DNA from: Rikenella microfusus
GTDB taxonomy: Bacteria > Bacteroidota > Bacteroidia > Bacteroidales > VadinHA17
Direction: 5' to 3'
Length of the DNA stretch: 64,000 nucleotides
Assembly (NCBI GenBank): GCA_022736275.1
Contig: DZBJ01000008.1
Span: forward strand, 33,334 to 97,333
The position numbers and the translations under genes were made by a program. Of this stretch, positions 32,318 through 45,169 are shown in pieces (position 1 is the stretch's first letter; every line of letters begins with the position of its first letter). The notes under the pieces were generated by a model. That model saw nothing but the letters and a program-made list of their open reading frames with translations, was not told where the DNA came from and ran no database searches.

Positions 32318-32940
32318 CTAACTGTAACCCCACTCCTTCATTATCTCAAGGTTCAGGCGGGCACACTCCATCGGGGTCTTTCCCTGGTATGCCTCCTGCT
32401 CGGTTATTATTACCTGTGCCCCACCTGTTTTTTCTATCATTGCCAGCACCTCTCTGACATCTGCCGCCCCTTCACCAATAATTGTGCTCTCAAACCGGCC
32501 TTCCTCACCTGTCCTGACAACATCCTTCAGGTGAACAAATCCAAATCTGCCGGGATAACGGTCTGCTACCTCCCTTGCAACGGCGCCTCCGCCGAATAAA
32601 TTTCCGGTATCCAGCTGCACCACAACAAGATCCGGATCGATGCTCCGCATCATGATGTCAAACAGGCTCTCACCGTTGAACTTCTCGCTGAATTCGAAAT
32701 CGTGATTATGGTACCCGAACTTCATGCCCCGTTTGTTGCACAGTTCACCACATTTATTGTACACATCCATGAAGGTCATGAAATCGTCATAGTTCCTTCT
32801 TATGCTCTCCTCGAGCCATGGCGTTACCACATACTTCTGTCCGCAGGTGGCAGCATCCTCAACAGTATATTTCCACCTTTCCGAAAAATCGACGGCAACT
32901 GCATCCCAGTCGCTTCTTATGAACTCAACATGCCCGGCGG
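32318..32940 (-). pseudogene. 5'-truncated sugar-phosphate isomerase/epimerase (xylose-isomerase-like TIM barrel)
   Basis: WKYTVEDAA, FGYHNHDFEF, QLDTGN, HLKD and EQE motifs present; the ORF-track N-terminus is antisense of the neighbouring gene. Confidence 0.75.
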
Positions 32941-34329
32941 TATCTGGGGTGAATTCAAAAACGCCCTGACATATTATTACGGAGATGAGTCGCGACTGAA
33001 AACCGGATGGGTAAGCAATGTCATGTTTGAACCATCGGCAGGCAACAGGATTTTTTCTGAAATGGCTGCAGCAGAACCGCGGCTGACAGTTTTGCGTAAT
33101 GCACGGGTTGAACAAGTTAAACGCCGCGGAGAGAGATGGCTGATCTCGGTCAGAACCACAGGCGGTATGATCAGATACTCCTCCCCCATCCTTATTGATG
33201 CCACTGAACTGGGAGATATCTCAAAGATGTGTGGTGTGAAATACGATGTCTGAATGGACTCACGGTATGACACGGGAGAGGAGATCGCCCCGGAGAGGGC
33301 AAACAATATCATCCAGGATCTGACATACGTGGCTGTTCTTAAGGATTATGGAAGGGAGGTGCCCATGGCCGCACCGGAAGGTTATGACCCTTCGCTTTTT
33401 GCATGTTCCTGCATCAACCCTGTCTGCCCCGGCGATGAAACTGAAAAGGCGAGGTGGTCATCCGAAGCAATGCTGAATTACGGCAGGCTCCCGAACAACA
33501 AGTACATGATAAACTGGCCTCTGTCAGGGAACGATTATTATGTCAATCTGACAGAGATGGGCACCAGGGAGAGGGAGAAGGCCCTGAAGGATGCAAAACA
33601 AAGGACCCTCCCTTTTGTGTGGTTTATAAGGAATGAGCTGGGGTATTCAAACCTCGCTCCTGCTGATGATGAATTCCCTACTGCTGACAGCCTCCCGTTC
33701 ATACCTTACTATCGCGAATCGAGAAGGATTCACGGTAAGGTGAGATTCACCCTTAACCACATCACGGAACCGTATGATCAGCCTGACAAACTGTACCGTA
33801 CATGCCCTGCTGTCGGAGATTACCCGGTTGATCATCATCACTCAGCCTATACAGGACCAGCCACCCTGCCCGACCTGAGTTTCTATCCTGTACCCTCATT
33901 CGGACTGCCGCTTGGCACACTCATACCTGAAGAGGTTGATGGGCTCATCGTTGCCGAAAAATCTATCTCGGTAACCAACCTTGTCAACGGAGCAACACGA
34001 CTCCGGCCCGTGGTGCTGCAGATCGGCCAGGCAGCCGGGCGTCAGACCTGGAAGGAATTAAAGATATCTGGCCTCTGACAGAGTATGACTTCAGTGAAAC
34101 AGAGCTGAGCGTTCAGCAGGCAGTTGACCTCATTCGTCTCGTTGCCCGTCAGAACAGCATTGAAATCAGTGAGTCAGGTATGGATGAAGCCCTGCTGATG
34201 ATTTTCAGGAATGCGGCTCATGAGATGGACCGCCCTGTGCTCAGGGGTGAGACTGCTCTTCTCATTGACAAGTCACTTGATCCTTTCAATAACCGGGAGG
34301 TGAACCTGAAAGGCGGGTTTGGGAAGTGA
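32927..34329 (+). pseudogene. degraded FAD-dependent oxidoreductase (FAD_oxidored-like)
   Basis: MPGGIWGEF, IDATELGD, PFIPYYRESRR, EKSISV and QIGQAAG; no N-terminal GxGxxG; in-frame TGA at 33251; frame switch near 34040 into a C-terminal segment ending DPFNNREVNLKGGFGK* at 34329. Confidence 0.8.
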
Positions 34330-35759: not shown

Positions 35760-36422
35760 ATGAAAGCAATTAATTATTTCCTAAGAGGGAGAGGACTATT
35801 AATTCAAATCCCCTTCCTGCTTCTGGCAGTCACTATTGGATGTACAAAACAGGATGCTGCTCCGGAAGTCATTGACGACATGAATTTCAAAAGCCTTGTA
35901 ACTGCAGATGGCACTGTCACCCTTGAGGGTGTTTCAGGCTTTGGTTTTTTCGCTCAGAAAGAAAAAATAGTGTTGGCTGATCCCTATGTAAACTCTTTGC
36001 CTTGTACGGCAGAATTAATATTTGGTGATAAGCAGAGCTTTGTGCTGCACACAAAGGAATACTTTGGTCCGGATTTTATGTACAGGGAAGTATGGTTTAA
36101 CGGAAAGATAACCCCAGGCGGCCAGCTGAAGTTTTCATACCCGATGACATTTACTGAATTTGATTTTGAAACAGGCGATTATGTTGTAAAAACAGTAGGT
36201 ATACTTCCGGAAATGAGGTTGCATACCGGATGCGTTTTTCACGGGCCTGGTATTAACGCTGGCACCCTGAATTTCGTGGGATATTTCGATGGTAACAGAT
36301 TATATGCCGATATGCATATTATAGGCTTGCAGGAAGTTCCTGGACAGATGCCATTTCTTGCAAATATGGTGGATGGACCAATAATGCTGAATTTCCTGTT
36401 TGACCTGGTAGTATCAGATTAA
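35760..36422 (+). CDS. hypothetical lipoprotein
   Basis: ATG at 35760; hydrophobic stretch ending TIGC (lipobox); followed by a terminator. Confidence 0.7.
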   Translation: MKAINYFLRGRGLLIQIPFLLLAVTIGCTKQDAAPEVIDDMNFKSLVTADGTVTLEGVSGFGFFAQKEKIVLADPYVNSLPCTAELIFGDKQSFVLHTKEYFGPDFMYREVWFNGKITPGGQLKFSYPMTFTEFDFETGDYVVKTVGILPEMRLHTGCVFHGPGINAGTLNFVGYFDGNRLYADMHIIGLQEVPGQMPFLANMVDGPIMLNFLFDLVVSD

Positions 36423-36446: not shown

Positions 36447-36479
36447 AGCTCCCGGAAATCACCTCCGGGAGCTTTTTTT
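36447..36479 (+). terminator. intrinsic terminator
   Basis: AGCTCCCGGA-AATCACC-TCCGGGAGCT followed by a T-tract. Confidence 0.85.
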
Positions 36480-36616
36480 ATGTTCAACCGTGAGTTTCAG
36501 CTTTCGTCACCCGATGAAACAACGTCATCAAAATAATTTGCCGGAATGACAATAGTTTAGGATATTTGATATAATGTGTCAGACACGTCGCCGGAAAACA
36601 ACTGAATCTCTGTTAC

Positions 36617-38653
36617 ATGCCAGAACAGCTAAATAGAAATCAAGTCCTGATTGAAAAACTAACAGGAATAATTCTCGCGAACCTGGAAAATGAAAGCTTC
36701 GGGGTTAAGAAACTTGTCCAGGAGTCAGGCTTAAGCCGTTCCAGATTAAGACGCAGCCTGTTTGCGGCGACACAAAAAACCCCGCACCAGTTTATTAATG
36801 AAACACGCTTGATGAAAGCGAGGGAATTCCTTATAAATGAAGATCTGAACGCTTCTGAGGTTGCATACAGGACAGGATTCAGCAGCCCGGCATATTTCAA
36901 TAAATGTTTCCATGAGTTTTTCGGTTTTCCGCCTGGAAAAGTTAAGAAAGGAGACCCGGGGATTCCTTCTGAAAACAGAGTTCCCCAGCCTGTTTCCGAA
37001 CGGAAACAGAAAAGACTATTTACCCAGACATTTAAGTTCCTCAAGGCATGGCTGCCGTTAATGATGGTCATATTCGTCACGGTTGTAGTCATGATATACC
37101 GTTCAGGGTCAGTGGGAAATACACTTGAGGTTCTGAGATCGCCAGACGGAAGAATATCTGTTGCAGTAATGCCATTCAGGAATCTGACCGGTGATACTTC
37201 CCTGAATATATGGCAGGGTCTGATACAGGATAACCTGATCAACTCCTTTTCAAACAACCCTGAGGAATTGAAAGTAAGGCAAACAGAATCAATAAACAGG
37301 TTGCTGGGTAATGAAGAAATACTAAACTATGCTTCGGTTACGCCATCGGCAGCAAAGGAAATTTCCAGAAAACTTGATGCGGATCTATTCGTATATGGAA
37401 GTATACAGCGCGCAGATTCTTCAATAAGGATAAGTGCCCAATTAATTGATTCAAAGACAGAAGAGATAATAAAGACTTTCGAACTGGACGGACATTACAG
37501 AGCCCGGAACTTCATTGCAGCTATTGATTCCCTAAGAAGCATGCTGGCGAATTACCTGGTCATATCTAAACTGGGAATGAATGCCCCACCTTCCCAAAGA
37601 CTCTACGAATCTCCTCATCCTGATGCCTTCAGGTATTACATCCACGGAGATAACGCAATGATGAGAGGTGATTTCTCAACGGCATTAACGCTGTTTTCGA
37701 AGGCCATAGAGATAGACACTACCTTCAGCAGTGCGATGATGGCACTGGTTCTTCAATACCTGAATTTTGCAAGATATTCCGACGCAAGAAACCTGGCTGA
37801 AAAGGTTTATAGAGGACGGGATCAAATGCCTCTGGTTCAGAAGTACCACGCAGACTGGATACATGCCTTTGTATTTGAATCACCCAGGAAAGCCATTTCC
37901 TGCCTGAGGCAGAGTCTTGAAATTGACGACCAGCGGCCCGGTCCATATTATCTGATAGGGATGCATTATAACTCCCTTCTGGAATATGATAAGGCAATCC
38001 CTGAATTTGAAAAGGCCCTGGATTTGTACAAAAAATGGGGTGCTAAACCCGGATATGGATTTTATACATCACTTGGATTTGCCTATCATAAAACCGGACT
38101 GTTTAAAAAGGAAAAGAAACTTTACGGGAGGGCAGAAAAGGATTATCCGGAGAATGCCATTCTGTGTTTCAGGCAGGCTGTACTGGCCTTAAGTATTGGA
38201 GATACCATGACAGCAAACCGGTCTATCGAAAAATATAAATCAATCCGCAAGGATCAGCTATGGACAGATCTGCAGGTCGCAACCAGCCTGGCCGGAATGT
38301 ACAGCCAGGCAAAAAATTACGCAAAGGCAGAGGAATATTACCTGCTGGCGTTATCGCTGGACTCCTTAAATCCCGTAATAATAAATAATCTTGCTGCATT
38401 TTATATTGAAAATGACACGAACATAGATGAGGCTTTGGCAATTGTAAGCAGGGCGTTGCTTTCACATCCTGACAACTATGATTGTCTGGATACCAAAGGC
38501 CGGGGATTATATAAACAGGAAAGATATCAGGAAGCCCTTGAGATCCTGCAAAAGAGCTGGCACATAAGAATGCAAAATGCGATTTATAATCACAGTGCTT
38601 TTCTGCACCTCGCTGAAGCTGAAAAAGCTGTTGCAGGGCAGAAGAGTAATTAA
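36617..38653 (+). CDS. AraC-HTH / TM / TolB-like / TPR one-component transmembrane regulator
   Basis: SEVAYRTGFSSPAYFNKCFHEFFG (AraC); TM LPLMMVIFVTVVVMIY; ISVAVMPFRNLTGD; TPR repeats. Confidence 0.85.
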   Translation: MPEQLNRNQVLIEKLTGIILANLENESFGVKKLVQESGLSRSRLRRSLFAATQKTPHQFINETRLMKAREFLINEDLNASEVAYRTGFSSPAYFNKCFHEFFGFPPGKVKKGDPGIPSENRVPQPVSERKQKRLFTQTFKFLKAWLPLMMVIFVTVVVMIYRSGSVGNTLEVLRSPDGRISVAVMPFRNLTGDTSLNIWQGLIQDNLINSFSNNPEELKVRQTESINRLLGNEEILNYASVTPSAAKEISRKLDADLFVYGSIQRADSSIRISAQLIDSKTEEIIKTFELDGHYRARNFIAAIDSLRSMLANYLVISKLGMNAPPSQRLYESPHPDAFRYYIHGDNAMMRGDFSTALTLFSKAIEIDTTFSSAMMALVLQYLNFARYSDARNLAEKVYRGRDQMPLVQKYHADWIHAFVFESPRKAISCLRQSLEIDDQRPGPYYLIGMHYNSLLEYDKAIPEFEKALDLYKKWGAKPGYGFYTSLGFAYHKTGLFKKEKKLYGRAEKDYPENAILCFRQAVLALSIGDTMTANRSIEKYKSIRKDQLWTDLQVATSLAGMYSQAKNYAKAEEYYLLALSLDSLNPVIINNLAAFYIENDTNIDEALAIVSRALLSHPDNYDCLDTKGRGLYKQERYQEALEILQKSWHIRMQNAIYNHSAFLHLAEAEKAVAGQKSN

Positions 38654-38786
38654 TCACTATACTGGAAAAGCTGATACCCTGTGAAGAGACGCTGCATACA
38701 ATGTCTCCGCCTTAATCAATCAACTTCCCTGACAAATAACCATGTTGTGAAAAGTAATTCCTATTTTGGCACCTCGGAAATAACAC

Positions 38787-39941
38787 ATGGCAGCTCTGAT
38801 CCTTGTACTCTTTTTTCTTCTCTCCCCGCTGCTGATATTGCGTCTCTGTCACAGATACAGCCTGTTAAGTAAAATCGGTGCCGTTGTTGTAGCATATGTG
38901 ATCGGGTTTGTAATTGGCAACCTGGGCTTGTTGCCTCTGATTGACGGTCATGCAAAAGTGCAGGAACTGCTTACAATGCTGACAATTCCCATTGCAATAC
39001 CTCTGCTGTTGTTCTCCATGGATATTAAGAAGTGGTCACATATTGCAGGCAAAACATTTCTTTCCCTGGCGTTTGCCATAGCAGCTGTAATGATAGTTGT
39101 CGTTGCCGGGTTCTTTATTTTCCGGAACCAGGGCATCCAGAATCTCTGGGATGTATCAGCCATGCTGGTGGGCTTGTATATCGGCAGCACGCCAAACCTC
39201 GCAGCAATACATACTGCAATCGGGTCTGATGAGGCAACATATATGACTGTTGTTACCTACGACCTTGTGATCGGAGCCTTTCATCTTCTGTTTGTAATGA
39301 CGATTGCCCAGCGCCTTGTGCTGATGTTTCTTCCGGCATATTCTTACATTGACCCTGCATCAGGCAATCTGGGCAAGGCTGAAGATGAAGATCCCTATTG
39401 GGGACTGCTAAAAAAAGAGACTGTAGTTCCCCTCCTTCAGTCCTTCGGCATCGCTCTCCTGATTTTTGGCATCGGAGGCGCCGCATCACTGTTGTTGCCA
39501 GCGTCATCACAGATGGCCGTTGTTATCCTGATCATTACAACACTGGGCATTGCCGCTTCACTTATCCCTGCCGTAAAGAAGCTGGATAAATCGTTTGAAC
39601 TGGGAATGTATCTGATCCTTGTATTCTGCATGGTCATTGCCTCGAGGGCGAACCTGGGGAGTATTGACCTTGTTGCAATGAAAATAGCTGGTTATGTGGC
39701 ATTCGTTGTCTTCGGATCAATGATTATCCAGGCCCTGTTATCGTGGATATTCAAAATTGACGCCGACACTTACATTATAACATCCACAGCTTTGATAACA
39801 AATCCTGCTGTTGTACTGGCTGTCGCCGCCTCCCTCAGAAACCGTGAGATTATATTTTCCGGACTCTCAGCAGCTATTATAGGTTTGGCTGCAGGCAACT
39901 ATCTGGGAATCTTAACGGCCTGGTTCCTGGAACGCATCTGA
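38787..39941 (+). CDS. DUF819-family multi-pass membrane protein
   Basis: about 10-11 hydrophobic helices; AIPLLLF, YIGSTPNL, GNYLG. Confidence 0.75.
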   Translation: MAALILVLFFLLSPLLILRLCHRYSLLSKIGAVVVAYVIGFVIGNLGLLPLIDGHAKVQELLTMLTIPIAIPLLLFSMDIKKWSHIAGKTFLSLAFAIAAVMIVVVAGFFIFRNQGIQNLWDVSAMLVGLYIGSTPNLAAIHTAIGSDEATYMTVVTYDLVIGAFHLLFVMTIAQRLVLMFLPAYSYIDPASGNLGKAEDEDPYWGLLKKETVVPLLQSFGIALLIFGIGGAASLLLPASSQMAVVILIITTLGIAASLIPAVKKLDKSFELGMYLILVFCMVIASRANLGSIDLVAMKIAGYVAFVVFGSMIIQALLSWIFKIDADTYIITSTALITNPAVVLAVAASLRNREIIFSGLSAAIIGLAAGNYLGILTAWFLERI

Positions 39942-39962
39942 TTGCCGGACCATCGATGGCTC

Positions 39963-41060
39963 TCATATAGTCATTACAATATCCATGAGAACATCTGCAG
40001 GATTCTCTTTCAGTCTTTCAATAAGTCCGGCATCTTTGGCAAAAACATACATCTCGCTTCTGACCGAGATACCAGTAAATTTATTCATGAATCTGAAAAC
40101 AGGATCATTTTCCGGGGCATACAGCATGATAAGAGTATATTCCGATCCCATGCTGATGTTGTTTGCATGCCTGAAGAGGGTGTCTAGGGCTTCAGGACAA
40201 TCATCATGGGCATACAGTACCAGGGAGAGCTGCCGTAGCGGCTCATTGAGCCTTACAGGATGCGGCATCTTCATGAAGTGCGACAGAAAATTCAACAGGC
40301 CTGTCACTACCCTGATACTGAAATTCAGTCTGAGTACCTGGTAACTCTTGTAAGGATGTTCATCCCACAGTGCCGTGACCGCCCTGATCTTGCCGTTTTC
40401 CCGTGCCACCAGGAAATTATCGAGTGATAGTCCGGTAATGGTGTCAAGATAATTTCTGAACCGATCCTCAGTGAGCACCGGTGCAATGGCATATCGCGAG
40501 ACATATTTACGGTACAGCTCTACTATTTCGGGGATGTCCTTATCGCCGGGCTTGTCAATTTTGTATCGTTTGTCAAGCCGCATGGAGCGGACGGGAATAA
40601 TATTGAAGATCCTGTTGGTGCCCAAATGAAGGGCCGGCGGCAGTCCTCCCCTGCCACTGGTAAAGACAAGAGGACTCTTATTGTCTTTCAGGAAGTTTGC
40701 AATGACCATGTCGGCATCTGATTTTCTGACATGATCAACTGCCGCCCTGACAAGTTTGAAGGCTGTCATCCCGCTCCTGTATGCCTTGTCAACCCTCAGG
40801 TCAAGCATATACCCCACCTTGTATGTATCTCCGAGCACTCTGGCCGGGAAGTGAACCACTCCGACCAGTCCGATGACACTTTCATCTTTAAAGGCAACCA
40901 GGTGCCAGGCATCCTTGTCAAGCAGTCGCTGCAGTGTATTGAACCTGGGGGTACGGTTGGTGAAATAGGTGATCATGCCCTCCTGCGGACATTGCTCTGC
41001 CAGGCCAATGATCCTGTCATTGTCCTCATCATCGGCCAGCTGTAAATTAATGGTACTCAT
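39963..41060 (-). CDS. GNAT-family N-acyltransferase (long form)
   Basis: GYMLDLRVDKAYRSG acyl-CoA-binding motif A. Confidence 0.75.
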   Translation of the reverse strand: MSTINLQLADDEDNDRIIGLAEQCPQEGMITYFTNRTPRFNTLQRLLDKDAWHLVAFKDESVIGLVGVVHFPARVLGDTYKVGYMLDLRVDKAYRSGMTAFKLVRAAVDHVRKSDADMVIANFLKDNKSPLVFTSGRGGLPPALHLGTNRIFNIIPVRSMRLDKRYKIDKPGDKDIPEIVELYRKYVSRYAIAPVLTEDRFRNYLDTITGLSLDNFLVARENGKIRAVTALWDEHPYKSYQVLRLNFSIRVVTGLLNFLSHFMKMPHPVRLNEPLRQLSLVLYAHDDCPEALDTLFRHANNISMGSEYTLIMLYAPENDPVFRFMNKFTGISVRSEMYVFAKDAGLIERLKENPADVLMDIVMTI

Positions 41061-41238
41061 TGTCTCAGTCCGATAGAAAATAGCAGCGTGGGTTGCATTC
41101 AGGCTGCCTTGACAATATTAATGTTTTCTGCGGCTGAAGGTGCAAAATCATTTAAAAATTTAAGATCCTTTCTTCCGGCCGTGTGCAGTTCGTTAAGGCA
41201 TTAGCCTGCATTACCCGAAGAGTGCCAAAGAAGAAATT

Positions 41239-41270
41239 TTTGCATTTAGCTCTGAAAGGGTTTAACTTTG
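41239..41270 (+). promoter_or_regulatory. promoter of the TIR-TPR gene
   Basis: TTTG (41239-41242), 20 bp, TAACTTTG (41263-41270); supports ATG 41294 as the true start. Confidence 0.7.
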
Positions 41271-41293
41271 ATAATAAACCAAATAGTCAACTG

Positions 41294-43603
41294 ATGTCAG
41301 GTATAATTGAAGGATATAACTACGACATCTTTATCAGCTACCGCCAGAAAGACAACAGGCACGATGGCTGGGTGACGGAATTTGTCGAAAACCTGAAAGG
41401 AGAACTGGAATCAACATTTAAGGAGGAGATCAGTGTCTATTTTGACATTAATCCCCATGACGGACTTCTGGAGACCCATGATGTTGATGCATCATTGAAG
41501 GAGAAGCTGAAATGCCTGATCTTTATTCCGATTGTCTCCCGAACCTACTGTGACCCCAAATCATTTGCCTGGGAGCATGAGTTTAAAGAATTTGTCGAAC
41601 AGGCTTCGCATGATCAATATGGATTGAAGGTGAAGCTGCCAAATGGCAATGTGGCAAACAGGGTCCTACCGGTACGCATTTATGACCTGGACAATGCAGA
41701 TATCAATGAATGTGAATCAGTTCTGGGCGGAGTGCTGCGGGGTATTGAATTCATTTACAGGGAACCGGGAGTCAACAGACCCCTGACACCAAATGATGAT
41801 GAAAACAGGAACCTGAATAAAACAAAGTACAGGAATCAGATCAATAAGGTTGCCAACTCGGTTAACGAGATCATACAGGGAATGAAGATCAACTCTTCAG
41901 TCGCTGAACTCCAAAAGTACAAGTCTGAAAGACCTGGTGAAATACATAAAGAGGGATTGATGGATCATGTGCCCACGAGCCCAAGTAAATCAACGTGGCG
42001 AAGAGGGTTAATAATTGGATTTATAACTTGCCTGCTGGTGACTTCAGGGATCATTGCCTATACCAGGGTAATTAATAAGAACAGGTTAGAGAAACTGGAG
42101 TCTTCGGGAGAACACATATCCGTTGCAATAATGCCTTTCCAGAATATGACAAACGATACAACCTGGAATGTCTGGCAGGATGGAATCAAGGATATACTCA
42201 TTACTTTCCTTTCAAGCTCTGAAGAATTAAGGATCAGGGACCCCGAATCAGTCAGGGGAATAATTGAAAATGATGGACTGTCTGATTATGCCTCAATCAC
42301 ACCTGCCGCTGCAAGAGCAGTTTCGCGGAAACTTGAAGCAGACATTTATGTTTATGGCAACATTAAGACGGCAGGTCAGACATTAAGGCTCTATGTCCAG
42401 TTAATCGATTCCAAATCTGCAGAGGTTTTTAAATCATTTCAGACAGAGGGTGTAAATGATGAACAGAAGATTTTCTCCTTGGTGGATTCGCTGTCCGCCG
42501 CCATCAGGGATTTTCTTGTAATTCAGAAATTGCAGAGAGGTCATTCCCCTGAAAGCCAAAATGTCGTAAGAACATTTTCACCTGAAGCTTACCGATATTT
42601 TGCGCAGGGAGAGAATTTGTTCAGCGATCGCGATTATGCTTCCGCGTTAAAACTGTTCTCTCAGGCATATGCCATCGATACCAACATGATCATTTCAGTT
42701 GTATACATGTCATTGTCTTATGGCAACAGGGGTTTGTATGAACAGGCAAAGGAATTGTGCCTGAAGGCATATCAAAAAAAAGAATTTCTGCCCCTGAGAA
42801 CCAGGCTTTACACTGAGTGGCTGTATGCAAATTATTTTGAAACTCCACGTGAGGAAATAATCTGCTTAAAAAAACTTATCGAGGTTGACGACCTCTCTGC
42901 AAGGGCTCATTTTATTCTGGGCAATTGCTACCTTAATCTCCAGCAGTATGAAAACGCAATTCCGGAATATGTTAAAGCGCTGGAGATACATAAGAGGTAT
43001 GGGATGAAGGCGATGTGGGTTTTTAATTATACTTACCTCGGAGAGGCTTACTACAAAACGGGGAAATACAGGAAGGAAAAGAAATTATATTATAAAGCCG
43101 ACCTCGAATACCCTGATGATCCGCCACTTTTGTACAGGGAAGCCGTTCTGGCCCTTTCATCAAGCAAAAGAGACAAAGCCAGCCAGATCATGGAAAAATA
43201 CACCAAGGTTCAGGAAGAAAGATCACTCTCCGAAGCCAGGATACTTACCTTGCTGGCTTATATTTATGAGGAGGCCGGGTTTAAGGACCTGGCGGAGCAG
43301 AATTATCGGCGGGCATTGTCATTGGAACCGGATAATCCGACAGTATTGAATGGTCTTGCCACCCTGCTGTTTGATATTGACAAAATGAATGAAGAAGCTA
43401 TAGAACTCATTAACAAAGCGATTGCTCTGGCTCCTTACAATTATCTTTGTCTTGACACAAAAGGGTGGGCACTTTTCGGGCAGGGCAGATATAAAGATGC
43501 ATTGGATATCCTCGAGGAAGCCTGGAGTCTGAAACCGGTCTATGATCATGATGTTTATCTGCATCTTGAAGCAGTAAGAAGGGCTGTTGCCGGGCTGAAG
43601 TAA
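41294..43603 (+). CDS. TIR-domain / TM / TolB-like / TPR protein
   Basis: YDIFISY, VYFD, IFIPIVSRTY, SFAWEHE (TIR); TM GLIIGFITCLLVTSGIIAY; ISVAIMPFQNMTND; TPR repeats. Confidence 0.82.
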   Translation: MSGIIEGYNYDIFISYRQKDNRHDGWVTEFVENLKGELESTFKEEISVYFDINPHDGLLETHDVDASLKEKLKCLIFIPIVSRTYCDPKSFAWEHEFKEFVEQASHDQYGLKVKLPNGNVANRVLPVRIYDLDNADINECESVLGGVLRGIEFIYREPGVNRPLTPNDDENRNLNKTKYRNQINKVANSVNEIIQGMKINSSVAELQKYKSERPGEIHKEGLMDHVPTSPSKSTWRRGLIIGFITCLLVTSGIIAYTRVINKNRLEKLESSGEHISVAIMPFQNMTNDTTWNVWQDGIKDILITFLSSSEELRIRDPESVRGIIENDGLSDYASITPAAARAVSRKLEADIYVYGNIKTAGQTLRLYVQLIDSKSAEVFKSFQTEGVNDEQKIFSLVDSLSAAIRDFLVIQKLQRGHSPESQNVVRTFSPEAYRYFAQGENLFSDRDYASALKLFSQAYAIDTNMIISVVYMSLSYGNRGLYEQAKELCLKAYQKKEFLPLRTRLYTEWLYANYFETPREEIICLKKLIEVDDLSARAHFILGNCYLNLQQYENAIPEYVKALEIHKRYGMKAMWVFNYTYLGEAYYKTGKYRKEKKLYYKADLEYPDDPPLLYREAVLALSSSKRDKASQIMEKYTKVQEERSLSEARILTLLAYIYEEAGFKDLAEQNYRRALSLEPDNPTVLNGLATLLFDIDKMNEEAIELINKAIALAPYNYLCLDTKGWALFGQGRYKDALDILEEAWSLKPVYDHDVYLHLEAVRRAVAGLK

Positions 43604-43633: not shown

Positions 43634-44755
43634 ATGCTCCCCATTTCAACAAGTCCCCGCCGTGCCGTATCTGGCACCATCTCTATGCTCGTTCTTAGCA
43701 GTCTTGCATTTGTCGCTGATGCACAACAGGTTGCCATTAAGCCTGTGACTGACATCAGGGAGGTGATGAGAGAACATGCCCTTATTGCAGAAATGCAGCT
43801 ATGGCCGGGTTTCAATGTCAGAGAAATTCCTGTTGCTGTTTTCGACAGTGTTAATACATGGCTCTACTTTTCAGACCAGCCACCTGAAGGTTTCAGACCG
43901 TCAGATGATGATACCGGAGTCTTTGTTTTTGAAGGCCAGTATCCATTGATCAGGGGCAATTCGGTAGTTCGTTTCGGAGAGGAGTGGACTGCCACCAGTG
44001 TTTTGAGCAACATTTCACGCAGAACCCGGGAGAGGTACCCGCCAAAGGACCTTGCCGGGATAATTGTCCATGAACAATTCCATGTTTTTCAAAGAACAAA
44101 ACATCCTGATTGGCGGCAGAACGACGGCGTGCTTCTCTTTTATCCGGAGGAAACAAAAGAAGCGCTGTTCTTCAGAAGAGTTGAAAAGGAGGCATTTAAA
44201 ATGGCTGTCCTCGCCACAGATGGGATGGAGATCACCGGATGGGCAATGACGGCACTGGACTACAGAAAGGAGAGACTGGATATGATTCCGGCACAGTTCG
44301 GGAACTACGAAAAGGAAATGCAGCACACCGAGGGTCTGTCAGATTACATAGAACGAATCGCACGCGGAGTTGATCCGCTGAATGCCTCCAATATGACAAA
44401 TGGCATTGCCCCTGCCGGCGTCAGGGATCTCGGTTACTGGGAAGGAAGATGGATAGCCATGATACTTGACAGGTTGAGTCCTGACTGGAAAAAGTTGCTT
44501 GACAGCAGTGATACTCTTTATCTGGAGCAGATTCTTGAAGCTTCCCTGATAGATTTGCCCTTCAGAAAGCAAGCTTTTAGCGAAAGTGAGATCAGTTTGC
44601 TCAGGCTGGATTCGGATAAAATTTTCGATGAATGGCAGATTAAGAAAGCAGAAGAGATTGAGAGCTACAAAAACCTGACAGGATTCAGTATTGAGATCAG
44701 CTCCACCTCAAACCCTCTTAACATCAGAATCTTCGAGCCTCTCGACCTACTATGA
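43634..44755 (+). CDS. exported HExxH zinc-peptidase-like protein, probably C-terminally truncated
   Basis: signal-like N-terminus; IIVHEQFH with downstream EGLSDY (gluzincin-like); stops where the transposase remnant begins. Confidence 0.6.
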   Translation: MLPISTSPRRAVSGTISMLVLSSLAFVADAQQVAIKPVTDIREVMREHALIAEMQLWPGFNVREIPVAVFDSVNTWLYFSDQPPEGFRPSDDDTGVFVFEGQYPLIRGNSVVRFGEEWTATSVLSNISRRTRERYPPKDLAGIIVHEQFHVFQRTKHPDWRQNDGVLLFYPEETKEALFFRRVEKEAFKMAVLATDGMEITGWAMTALDYRKERLDMIPAQFGNYEKEMQHTEGLSDYIERIARGVDPLNASNMTNGIAPAGVRDLGYWEGRWIAMILDRLSPDWKKLLDSSDTLYLEQILEASLIDLPFRKQAFSESEISLLRLDSDKIFDEWQIKKAEEIESYKNLTGFSIEISSTSNPLNIRIFEPLDLL

Positions 44756-45050
44756 TATTACTGTATGCGATGATGGAAATGGTCTGGCGACAAGTATAAG
44801 TTGTCGTCACAAAAAGGGTGAAGATCCTGGCAAACAAGCCGGGATATATTTTCTCAGGACTTCATTAATGAAGCTTGATGAATGTACATTTTGGGCTATA
44901 TATAACATTATCAGAGAGATAGAGTACACCTTAAGAATAATTAAAACCGACCTGGACCTTCGTCCCATCTATCATAAAACCGATGATGCCTCGATGGCAC
45001 ATCTGAACCTTGGTTTATTGGCCTACGGGTTAGTTGCAACCATAACCCAC
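44746..45050 (+). mobile_element. IS1634-family transposase remnant (internal/C-terminal fragment)
   Basis: GIYFLRTSL...W.IYNIIREIEYTLRIIKTDLDLRPIYHK...AHLNLGLLAY (IS4-superfamily YxxRxxIE-like region); no N-terminus or terminal IRs seen. Confidence 0.8.
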
Positions 45051-45169
45051 ATTGCAGGGGTAAGTTTTCTCTTGTTGATATTTAAACTACACTTGTAATT
45101 AAAGGCAAAACCGGAAAAACCCTTCTGAAAGCTCAATAATCTGAAGTAATCAGGTATTTCATCATCGGA

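Follow-up and report, generated by a model that had tools for sequence, protein, structure and literature searches.

Two genes for predicted single-pass membrane receptors, which we call gene A and gene B, lie on the plus strand of a 64,000-nucleotide stretch of contig DZBJ01000008.1 from Rikenella microfusus. This whole stretch is referred to below as the window, and positions are given in its numbering. Gene A (36617..38653) encodes a protein of 678 amino acids (translation P0001; the recorded identical protein is P0123) that is composed of an AraC-type head, a membrane helix, a TolB-N-like domain and an array of tetratricopeptide repeats (TPRs). Gene B (41294..43603) encodes a protein of 769 amino acids in which a TIR-like head precedes the same three parts. 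An upstream GTG at 41183 is also open and would extend B to 806 amino acids. However, the ATG at 41294 is most likely the true start, because the gene-caller protein P0003, which is full-length B and is on record on four contigs, has 769 amino acids, and because all homologues start at the aligned methionine.

The shared part of the two receptors

An earlier note, made from the letters of this DNA, had proposed that the two proteins align closely once past their membrane helices and that their N-termini are unrelated. All peptide strings quoted there are found in the translations of A and B, and BLASTP comparison bears out both statements. A single colinear alignment joins A 146-676 to B 278-806 (806-residue numbering), extending from the single membrane helix to the C-terminus, with 206 of 533 positions identical (39%), 65% positives, six gaps and an E value of 1e-131. 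The N-termini show no significant similarity by the same method, the best segment outside the main alignment having an E value of 1.8. Approximately 150 of the aligned residues are not TPR, including the box ISVA(V/I)MPF.N.T.D, and a generic TPR protein encoded in the same genome (C62) reaches only E 3e-6, so the C-terminal resemblance stands well above generic TPR background.

The suggestion of domain shuffling in this lineage, if taken to mean a recent swap between A and B, is not supported. Given the 39% identity and a longest exact DNA match in common of only 12 nt, A and B appear to be old paralogues with no sign of recent exchange. Contigs from the independent public runs X9, X10 and X6 span the head/helix/sensor junction of A and the helix/sensor junction of B, and therefore the two fusions are not artefacts of one assembly. 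The listed contigs from four runs leave 41626-41731 and 41747-41826 uncovered, both of which are within the TIR head of B; this carries no weight against the gene, whose full-length product is on record as noted above.

Exactly one strong hydrophobic stretch is present in each protein, located between the head and the shared module, as expected from the claim that each has a single membrane helix. In A the helix covers residues ~142-160 (37040..37096, plus strand; Kyte-Doolittle 19-residue mean peak 2.35), and in B it covers residues ~238-256 counted from the ATG (42005..42061, plus strand; peak 2.13). The helix of A is preceded by a stretch rich in Lys and Arg, with five such residues in the 15 before it versus two after. 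Since an AraC head can function only in the cytoplasm, the shared module of A is predicted to be periplasmic and to constitute the input, and the same would apply to B by homology.

Beyond the helix of A, a conserved juxtamembrane box (..ISVAVMPF.N.T.D..) and an alpha/beta domain that we describe as TolB-N/LpoB/CadC-like occupy residues 170-334 (37124..37618, plus strand), followed by a TPR solenoid at residues ~335-678 (37619..38650, plus strand), all predicted to be periplasmic. The corresponding box and TolB-N-like domain of B (42080..42574, plus strand) were assigned by BLASTP homology and are 42% identical to the domain of A; the predicted periplasmic TPR solenoid of B follows at 42575..43600 (plus strand; Pfam TPR_2 E 1.6e-20 and other TPR families). 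The presence of TPRs in both receptors, as originally proposed, is evident from matches above the Pfam cut-off to TPR_1, TPR_2, TPR_8, TPR_12, TPR_14 and TPR_19 in A and B.

For the domain nearest the membrane, the earlier label 'TolB-like' finds only sub-threshold matches in Pfam. In A the bit scores are 17.7 for FlgO (cut-off 22.6), 15.1 for CsgG (20.8) and 15.5 for TolB_N (22.4), with LpoB likewise below its threshold, and in B the CsgG match (E 3e-4, 20.5 bits) is just under 20.8. The label gains its support from structure prediction. When the ~150 residues of this domain from A were folded alone with AlphaFold2 (AF2) using 40 homologues, a model with pLDDT 84.3 and pTM 0.81 was obtained, for which Foldseek returned LpoB (2.8e-7), the TolB N-domain (4.4e-7), GNA1162, PelC and CsgG. 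An independent comparison by VIA gave TolB (Z 12.1), the FlgT ring (11.2), GNA1162 (10.6), LpoB (10.4), PelC (10.2), the periplasmic domain of CadC (9.7) and CsgG (8.9). In addition, positions ~296-606 of the NCBIfam model TIGR04510 match the TolB-N-like domain and the early TPRs (E 6e-15 for A, 7e-16 for B), at 55-58 bits, far under the model cut-off of 400.

The order of the cassette, from the cytoplasm outward, is thus an exchangeable head, a charged linker, the helix, the conserved box, the TolB-N/LpoB/CadC-like domain and ~350 residues of TPR.

The AraC-type head of gene A

The head of A is an AraC/XylS-type DNA-binding domain with two helix-turn-helix (HTH) motifs, predicted to be cytoplasmic, at residues ~7-112 (36635..36952, plus strand). 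The HTH assignment in the earlier note is well founded, given that residues 34-111 match Pfam HTH_18 with E 7e-18 and 65.1 bits (cut-off 33.6) over positions 2-79 of the 80 in the model. Residues 27-61 match HTH_AraC (E 9e-7, 29.3 bits; cut-off 26.6), and NCBIfam AraC-family models align to residues 4-113. These matches describe the ~100-residue conserved DNA-binding domain with two HTH motifs that is typical of the AraC/XylS family.

Neither Pfam nor hydropathy analysis uncovered a cupin or other AraC N-domain, a ligand-binding or dimerization domain, or any further cytoplasmic domain in A. Its layout departs from that of the usual soluble AraC protein, wherein an N-terminal ligand-binding or dimerization domain is followed by the DNA-binding domain; here the DNA-binding domain comes first and is followed by the membrane helix and the periplasmic module. 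With an HTH_18 domain, one helix and a module at the C-terminus that resembles periplasmic proteins in its fold, A has the predicted topology of a transmembrane transcription regulator. Pfam gave no match to Trans_reg_C, the OmpR/PhoB-type winged helix of the ToxR/CadC subfamily. No direct repeats of the kind expected for an AraC operator were present in the three intergenic regions searched.

The head of gene B as a divergent TIR domain

The proposal that B carries a TIR domain was drawn from a region that scores below the Pfam cut-off, yet its predicted fold points to the same assignment. Residues 1-233 of B were folded with AF2 on an alignment of 60 diverse homologues, and the model (pLDDT 89, pTM 0.83) was compared with known structures. 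Foldseek found 38 matches in the PDB at E<=1e-3, every one listed being a TIR (best RUN1, 1.1e-5). The 50 matches shown by VIA are likewise all TIRs (Z 12.8-10.4, 122-149 residues aligned, rmsd ~3 Å), and include SPARTA TIR-APAZ, RUN1, RPP1, MyD88, AbTir and SARM1; identity to the TIR structures is 12-22%. A profile built from 10 head sequences also gave a weak match to the TIRs of flax L6 (E 0.013) and L7 (E 0.029) among PDB sequences, over strand A and the strand C segment. Because the structural matches are all to TIRs and the L6/L7 profile match agrees, we judge that residues 1-200 of B (41294..41893, plus strand), a flavodoxin-like domain in the model, are predicted to form a genuine but divergent TIR fold located in the cytoplasm. 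Two features of the model are a hairpin inserted at residues 112-122 and a long helix (179-212) that follows the TIR domain and leads toward the membrane. None of the 120 best listed homologues of this head has a precomputed TIR family annotation.

Conservation within the aligned heads is extensive. Residues D11, S15, R17, D20, W26, D51, D56, P79, S82, W93 and E96, among others, are invariant, and 35 columns are invariant and 46 nearly so across the 60 heads. E96 is invariant in both the 60-head and the 10-head alignments and lies at the start of a predicted helix (91-106), after the segment aligned with L6. Catalytic TIRs carry their glutamate at such a helix start, and E96 of the model is a candidate catalytic residue.

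Paralogues in the same genome

A count of paralogues and their heads throughout the genome (3.15 Mb in 188 contigs) revealed six family genes, three with AraC heads (A, C10 and C141) and three with TIR heads (B, C68 and C65), in keeping with the modular family that had been envisaged. One hydropathy peak above 2.1 is found in all six. Four sensors (A, C10, C68 and B) form a first class with mutual identities of 39-43%, whatever the head. The second class consists of C65 (TIR) and C141 (AraC), which are 30% identical to each other and 21-24% identical to the first class. Since each class bears both heads, at least two independent pairings must have occurred. Head identities are 60-75% for the TIR type and 46-62% for the AraC type. 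No recent recombination is evident among the six genes, whose longest exact DNA matches are 12-23 nt; a 21-nt exact match between an AraC and a TIR gene falls in the juxtamembrane box.

A 40-residue remnant of a TIR head, 60% identical to B residues 47-86, was also found at G000:C69:2225-2341 with no full gene around it, and is probably a decayed copy.

A large family with exchangeable heads

The family to which A and B belong is large, unnamed and apparently undescribed. Of 8000 scored candidates, 7216 match the TIR head, corresponding to at least 7216 proteins at 90% clustering, and head identity among the best 120 matches is 71-100%. When representatives at 50% identity were searched exhaustively, 1098 clusters matched with E<=1e-3 and 521 with E<=1e-30, always with the head at residues 1-~200, and its identity is 55-83% across 150 such clusters. 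For the AraC head there were 131 matches among 379 candidates, and almost all of these matches combine HTH_18 with TPR in 650-730 residues. Many of these matches bear the JGI label 'TolB-like protein/AraC-like DNA-binding protein', and many family members are named 'TolB-like protein' or 'adenylate cyclase'. In two proteins of 379 residues, P0419 and P0421, the AraC head is instead fused to a Fib_succ_major domain.

The TIR head was present in four of 201 genomes sampled across the order. Sensor relatives are encoded in 238 stretches from the species representatives of GTDB, and all 77 loci that were kept are from uncultured Bacteroidales/Bacteroidia metagenome-assembled genomes (MAGs).

Four kinds of head were recognized when the 119 non-self best matches to the sensor of A were typed by the region before the last membrane helix. 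In this neighbourhood, 54 sensors carry the TIR-like head (typically ~770 residues in total), 23 carry a three-helix head composed of a short N-terminus and two extra membrane helices (~638 residues), 22 carry a DUF4145-like helical head of ~165 residues (~700 residues in total) and 13 carry the AraC head (~677 residues), with the remaining seven truncated at contig ends. The DUF4145-like head matches Pfam DUF4145 at only E 0.019, and the Atlas leads for it are DUF4145- and HEPN-like (0.88). No Pfam family matches the three-helix head, which bears a DITPEGIKKT motif. In the Atlas its lead consists of N-terminal fragments from other phyla that are annotated as adenylyl cyclase (0.94), a resemblance that is to be taken as a lead only. 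P0156 and P0183 exemplify the DUF4145-like and three-helix heads on the same sensor; neither head occurs in the genome of A and B.

On a FastTree tree of 123 sensor regions, from which C141 and C65 (no long alignment) and P0123 (identical to A) were omitted and in which truncated rows were kept unlabelled, the head types are intermingled. At least 17 label changes for the TIR head, 12 and 11 for the other two heads and 3 for the AraC head are required by well-supported branches, and the total of 39 changes compares with 60 when labels are shuffled. Independently of the tree, 43 of the 116 labelled sensors have a nearest neighbour that bears another head. Sensor identity between proteins with different heads reaches 92.5% (TIR versus three-helix) and 89.5% (three-helix versus DUF4145-like). 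The best pair involving an AraC head is only 63% identical, and thus AraC exchanges seem to have been fewer or older. In close pairs with different heads, the similarity begins at or just past the membrane helix. These patterns show that head and sensor have been re-paired many times, and that the helix and linker move with the head, the join lying in or beside the conserved box. The modularity and shuffling first proposed for two proteins are therefore wider than was envisaged.

Many of these genes are arranged in arrays. The 77 loci contain 128 family open reading frames (ORFs), and 36 of them hold at least two such ORFs within 6 kb, mostly as same-strand tandems, although two of these cases are single broken genes. 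Neighbours with different heads include AraC and TIR (L071, L038), three-helix and TIR (L079, L019), and DUF4145-like and three-helix (L058, L080). Five MAGs contain 27, 5, 49, 18 and 17 matches to the TIR head, many of them interrupted by stop codons, and 10, 4, 11, 4 and 4 class-1 sensors, respectively, so the TIR head must also occur on other tails. In one short-read run, contigs are broken within the sequence of the TIR head, where the depth rises from ~40 to 157, as expected of a conserved segment present in multiple copies.

Dense clusters of TIR heads, many interrupted by stops or split, were observed in G207 (the genome of L047; C41:152-181 kb, C31 and C22) and in G203 (C9:695-750 kb), and these look like the result of birth-and-death turnover. 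A different arrangement was noted in a sister genus of the genome considered here, where two TIR-head genes (L009/L017, G125:C118:18796-20177) lie head-to-head on opposite strands ~190 nt apart.

Genes near A and B and their relatives

Directly upstream of A is a gene for a lipoprotein with the lipobox ..TIGC and no Pfam family (35760-36422, plus strand). This gene ends in a terminator-like hairpin (36447-36473), and a promoter-like site precedes A at 36546-36575, as judged by a scan for the sigma-70 consensus that may not fit this phylum. A therefore looks like its own transcription unit. In L064 and L071 a homologue of the lipoprotein is encoded directly downstream of an AraC-type receptor gene, and L055 contains a further homologue. 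At AraC-type genes this small lipoprotein is the only component whose position recurs (in the window, L064 and L071), apart from a 150-residue ORF that recurs in two loci. The lipoprotein could be a target or co-sensor of A; a predicted complex between the periplasmic module of A and the lipoprotein (35841-36419) received scores of 0.00 and 0.00, which speak neither for nor against binding.

Between A and B are genes for a DUF819 membrane protein (38787-39941) and, on the other strand, a GNAT protein. A gene for a secreted protein of 373 residues with a signal-like N-terminus and an HEQFH motif (43634-44755, plus strand) starts 31 nt past the stop codon of B. This protein belongs to no Pfam family, nor do the 77 related loci encode a homologue. 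A porin gene comes next.

The most frequent non-family neighbours in the 77 loci are genes for secreted Fib_succ_major (PF09603) proteins, which occur in 13 loci (L035, L033, L056, L050, L031, L019, L058 and six more) and are often directly adjacent to the receptor gene. These are followed by beta-lactamase-fold proteins (6), aldo-keto reductases (5), PfkB kinases (4) and TonB-dependent receptors (4). Five of the genomes concerned contain 11-29 copies of Fib_succ_major each. The genome of A and B has only two (G000:C10:22831-24603), ~13 kb from the C10 receptor gene. This association may represent a modest enrichment and is offered as a lead.

Two further observations concern the window itself. 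An in-frame TGA (33251-33253) splits an ORF at 32702-34078 (plus strand) into two pieces in the same frame, which could reflect a pseudogene, a sequencing error or a recoded stop. A short ORF at 44691-45098 (plus strand), which we take to resemble the C-terminal part of a transposase, lies just ahead of a drop in G+C content from ~0.44 to 0.37-0.40 beyond 46 kb.

Proposed function and competing explanations

The reading we favour, and which we regard as somewhat more probable than its negation, is that A and B belong to a large, unnamed receptor family of uncultured Bacteroidales whose members cross the inner membrane once and in which a periplasmic input is coupled to exchangeable heads that provide the output. 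We infer ligand binding and TIR activity from the architecture of these proteins. The periplasmic module would serve as the input, most likely for a peptide or protein ligand, as is usual for TPRs, and A and B probably read different ligands. Binding would change the oligomeric state or the helix register. In A, the membrane-tethered AraC domain would then engage a promoter and switch on transcription, in the manner of ToxR, CadC or TfoS. In B, ligand-driven clustering would bring the TIR domains together through TIR-TIR assembly, and the output would be NAD+ cleavage or a nucleotide signal if E96 is catalytic, or otherwise a scaffold for a partner. Given that the TIR head is extremely conserved while the sensor diverges fast, the comparison suggests a fixed downstream partner or reaction served by variable inputs.

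Some observations weigh against this reading. The head of B lies below the Pfam threshold (TIR_2 E 0.15, 13 bits versus a cut-off of 28), and the PADLOC models gave nothing better than bSEFIR at E 0.054. E96 is spaced three residues after an invariant Trp, whereas in plant and SARM1 catalytic TIRs the Glu lies four residues after the conserved Trp. The positive-inside count of B is ambiguous (three Lys and Arg residues before the helix and four after), and for this reason its topology is taken from its homology to A. The only tree is one built with FastTree, and the re-pairing counts describe the neighbourhood of the top 120 matches to the sensor of A rather than the family at large. Most of the sequences come from metagenome assemblies, such that chimeric contigs may explain single cases; as a general cause, chimeras would give near-identity rather than the graded 60-90% identities between sensors with different heads. 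The three-helix head has almost no cytoplasmic domain and is a poor fit for a sensor that drives an output. Finally, when the non-family ORFs of the 77 loci were clustered, neither a conserved partner or target gene nor an effector candidate was found.

In a more ambitious form, which we advance tentatively and consider on balance rather unlikely, the family would be a combinatorial receptor system, wherein a fast-diversifying TolB-N/TPR cassette is recombined at the juxtamembrane box, in tandem arrays, onto a few heads, so that one cue can lead to several outputs. If this were true, the same outside cue could be routed to transcription through AraC, to an NAD-derived signal made by TIR, or to two further outputs. 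TIR would then rank among the ordinary sensory outputs with which bacteria signal across their membranes, in a bacterial parallel to the logic of Toll-like receptors, and AraC-headed paralogues or chimeras would be natural reporters for the ligands of TIR receptors.

Most of what is known about bacterial TIRs comes from cytoplasmic anti-phage systems and secreted effectors. One competing explanation, which we consider unlikely, is that the TIR-headed members constitute an envelope-facing immune repertoire. The TPRs would sense a phage or competitor protein, TIR would trigger NAD+ depletion or a Thoeris-like signal, leading to abortive infection, and the AraC members would be an offshoot domesticated for regulation. 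The best TIR matches do include the NADase TIRs of SPARTA, RUN1, AbTir and SARM1; the genes form tandem arrays with 5-49 copies per genome, many of them decayed; and the divergence of sensors (39-43% identity) relative to heads (60-75%) is the pattern of fast-turnover receptor repertoires. However, no PADLOC model recognizes the TIR head of B at E<0.05, and the known anti-phage systems that PADLOC covers are not indicated by the best scores for B (bSEFIR as above; TPR E 0.0048). No recognizable defence genes flank A or B, the neighbours being DUF819, GNAT, porin and proteins without a family, and the 77 loci contain no conserved effector neighbour. Moreover, these sensors are also joined to a transcription factor and to two heads that look non-enzymatic, and the TIR head is unusually conserved for an immune component, as its identities across the 150 clusters attest.

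Alternatively, the TIR head could act as a non-catalytic assembly or adaptor domain, as in Toll-like receptors (TLRs) and MyD88, that recruits a cytoplasmic partner on receptor clustering. The invariant and nearly invariant columns are spread over the whole surface of the head, which suggests a conserved partner, the TIRs of MyD88, TLR and IL-1R are among its VIA matches (Z 10.5-12.2), and the spacing of its Glu is unlike that of the catalytic TIRs mentioned above. We nevertheless find this distinctly unlikely, in view of the invariant Glu at the expected helix start and the lack of a linked partner gene in the 77 loci. The bacterial TIRs studied so far are also, to our knowledge, mostly NAD+-processing, which we count against an adaptor role.

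It is very improbable, in our judgement, that the periplasmic module is a structural or scaffolding part, such as a tether in the envelope or an assembly factor with binding partners among the proteins of the outer membrane or cell wall, with heads that regulate or anchor from inside. Its nearest folds (TolB, LpoB, PelC, CsgG and FlgT) are those of envelope assembly proteins and not of ligand sensors, the three-helix head has no obvious output domain, and secreted Fib_succ_major neighbours are found in 13 of the 77 loci. Against this, a DNA-binding head makes sense only as an output, the periplasmic sensor of CadC has the same fold (Z 9.7), and the match to TIGR04510, though below cut-off, suggests that the module is an input domain elsewhere.

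We give practically no credence to the idea that the resemblance of A and B is generic TPR background or that the hydrophobic stretch is not a membrane helix, given the colinear alignment over 533 residues with its ~150 non-TPR positions, the far weaker score of C62, the single hydropathy peak in all six paralogues and the periplasmic fold relatives of the proximal domain.

A TIR domain that stands in place of the DNA-binding domain of a sister receptor, joined to the same periplasmic sensor and repeatedly exchanged with that domain, provides strong comparative evidence for this TIR as the output of an outside-in transmembrane receptor. The family, with its TIR-headed proteins numbering at least 7216, is confined to uncultured environmental Bacteroidales. 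The transcriptional read-out of AraC-headed members, or of chimeras, could reveal what the sensors detect, and the pattern of swapping at the junction offers a natural blueprint for engineered single-chain transmembrane biosensors.

Comparison with known systems

In the full-text literature we found no description of the AraC-headed or the TIR-headed architecture, although the supplements of one census may hold such proteins. That census, published in 2023, reports in the portion available that transmembrane regulators are enriched in Bacteroidota (PMC10269533). Its main text does not use the words AraC or TPR; its supplements may list proteins of this kind. The accessible part of a survey of TIR proteins (PMC7075850) mentions actinobacterial proteins with an N-terminal TIR and TPRs, and no membrane receptor like B.

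The head of B has the fold of known TIRs (SPARTA TIR-APAZ, RUN1, L6, AbTir, PdTIR, MyD88 and SARM1) and has an invariant Glu at what would be the start of helix C. It differs from them in its hairpin insert (112-122), its long C-terminal helix and its position at the N-terminus of a membrane receptor, and it is far more conserved within its own family than TIRs usually are. At the level of the whole protein, B recalls the Toll-like and IL-1 receptors of animals in combining a repeat-solenoid ectodomain, one helix and a cytoplasmic TIR. This is an analogy only, as the order is inverted in B (TIR is N-terminal), the repeats are TPRs rather than leucine-rich repeats or immunoglobulin domains, the ectodomain would face the periplasm, and there is no evidence for common descent of the whole architecture. 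A and B also share the TolB-N-like and early TPR match with TIGR04510 ('putative peptide modification system cyclase'), but they lack the cyclase domain and carry other heads.

Among membrane-bound transcription factors, TfoS of Vibrio cholerae has a periplasmic domain that is large but of a different type, and its DNA-binding domain, which we take to be AraC-type, is located at the C-terminus. It shows no sequence relation to A and has no TolB-N/TPR module. Like the action proposed for A, TfoS works as a transcription factor from its anchored place in the membrane and responds to a cue from outside the cytoplasm, according to PMC11856585, the text of which does not use the word AraC.

The closest parallel to A is provided by regulators of the CadC/ToxR type. 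A is unlike these proteins in that its DNA-binding domain is AraC-type with two HTH motifs, not an OmpR-type winged helix, and no relation to CadC was seen at the sequence level. Nevertheless, the predicted order of parts in A is that of CadC, with a DNA-binding domain at the N-terminus on the cytoplasmic side, then one helix, and finally a sensor in the periplasm. The first subdomain (193-317) of the periplasmic domain of Escherichia coli CadC (PDB 3LY7) matches the proximal domain of A over 117 residues with Z 9.7 and an rmsd of 3.6, and in both proteins this alpha/beta subdomain is followed by a helical domain, which in A takes the form of a long canonical TPR array.

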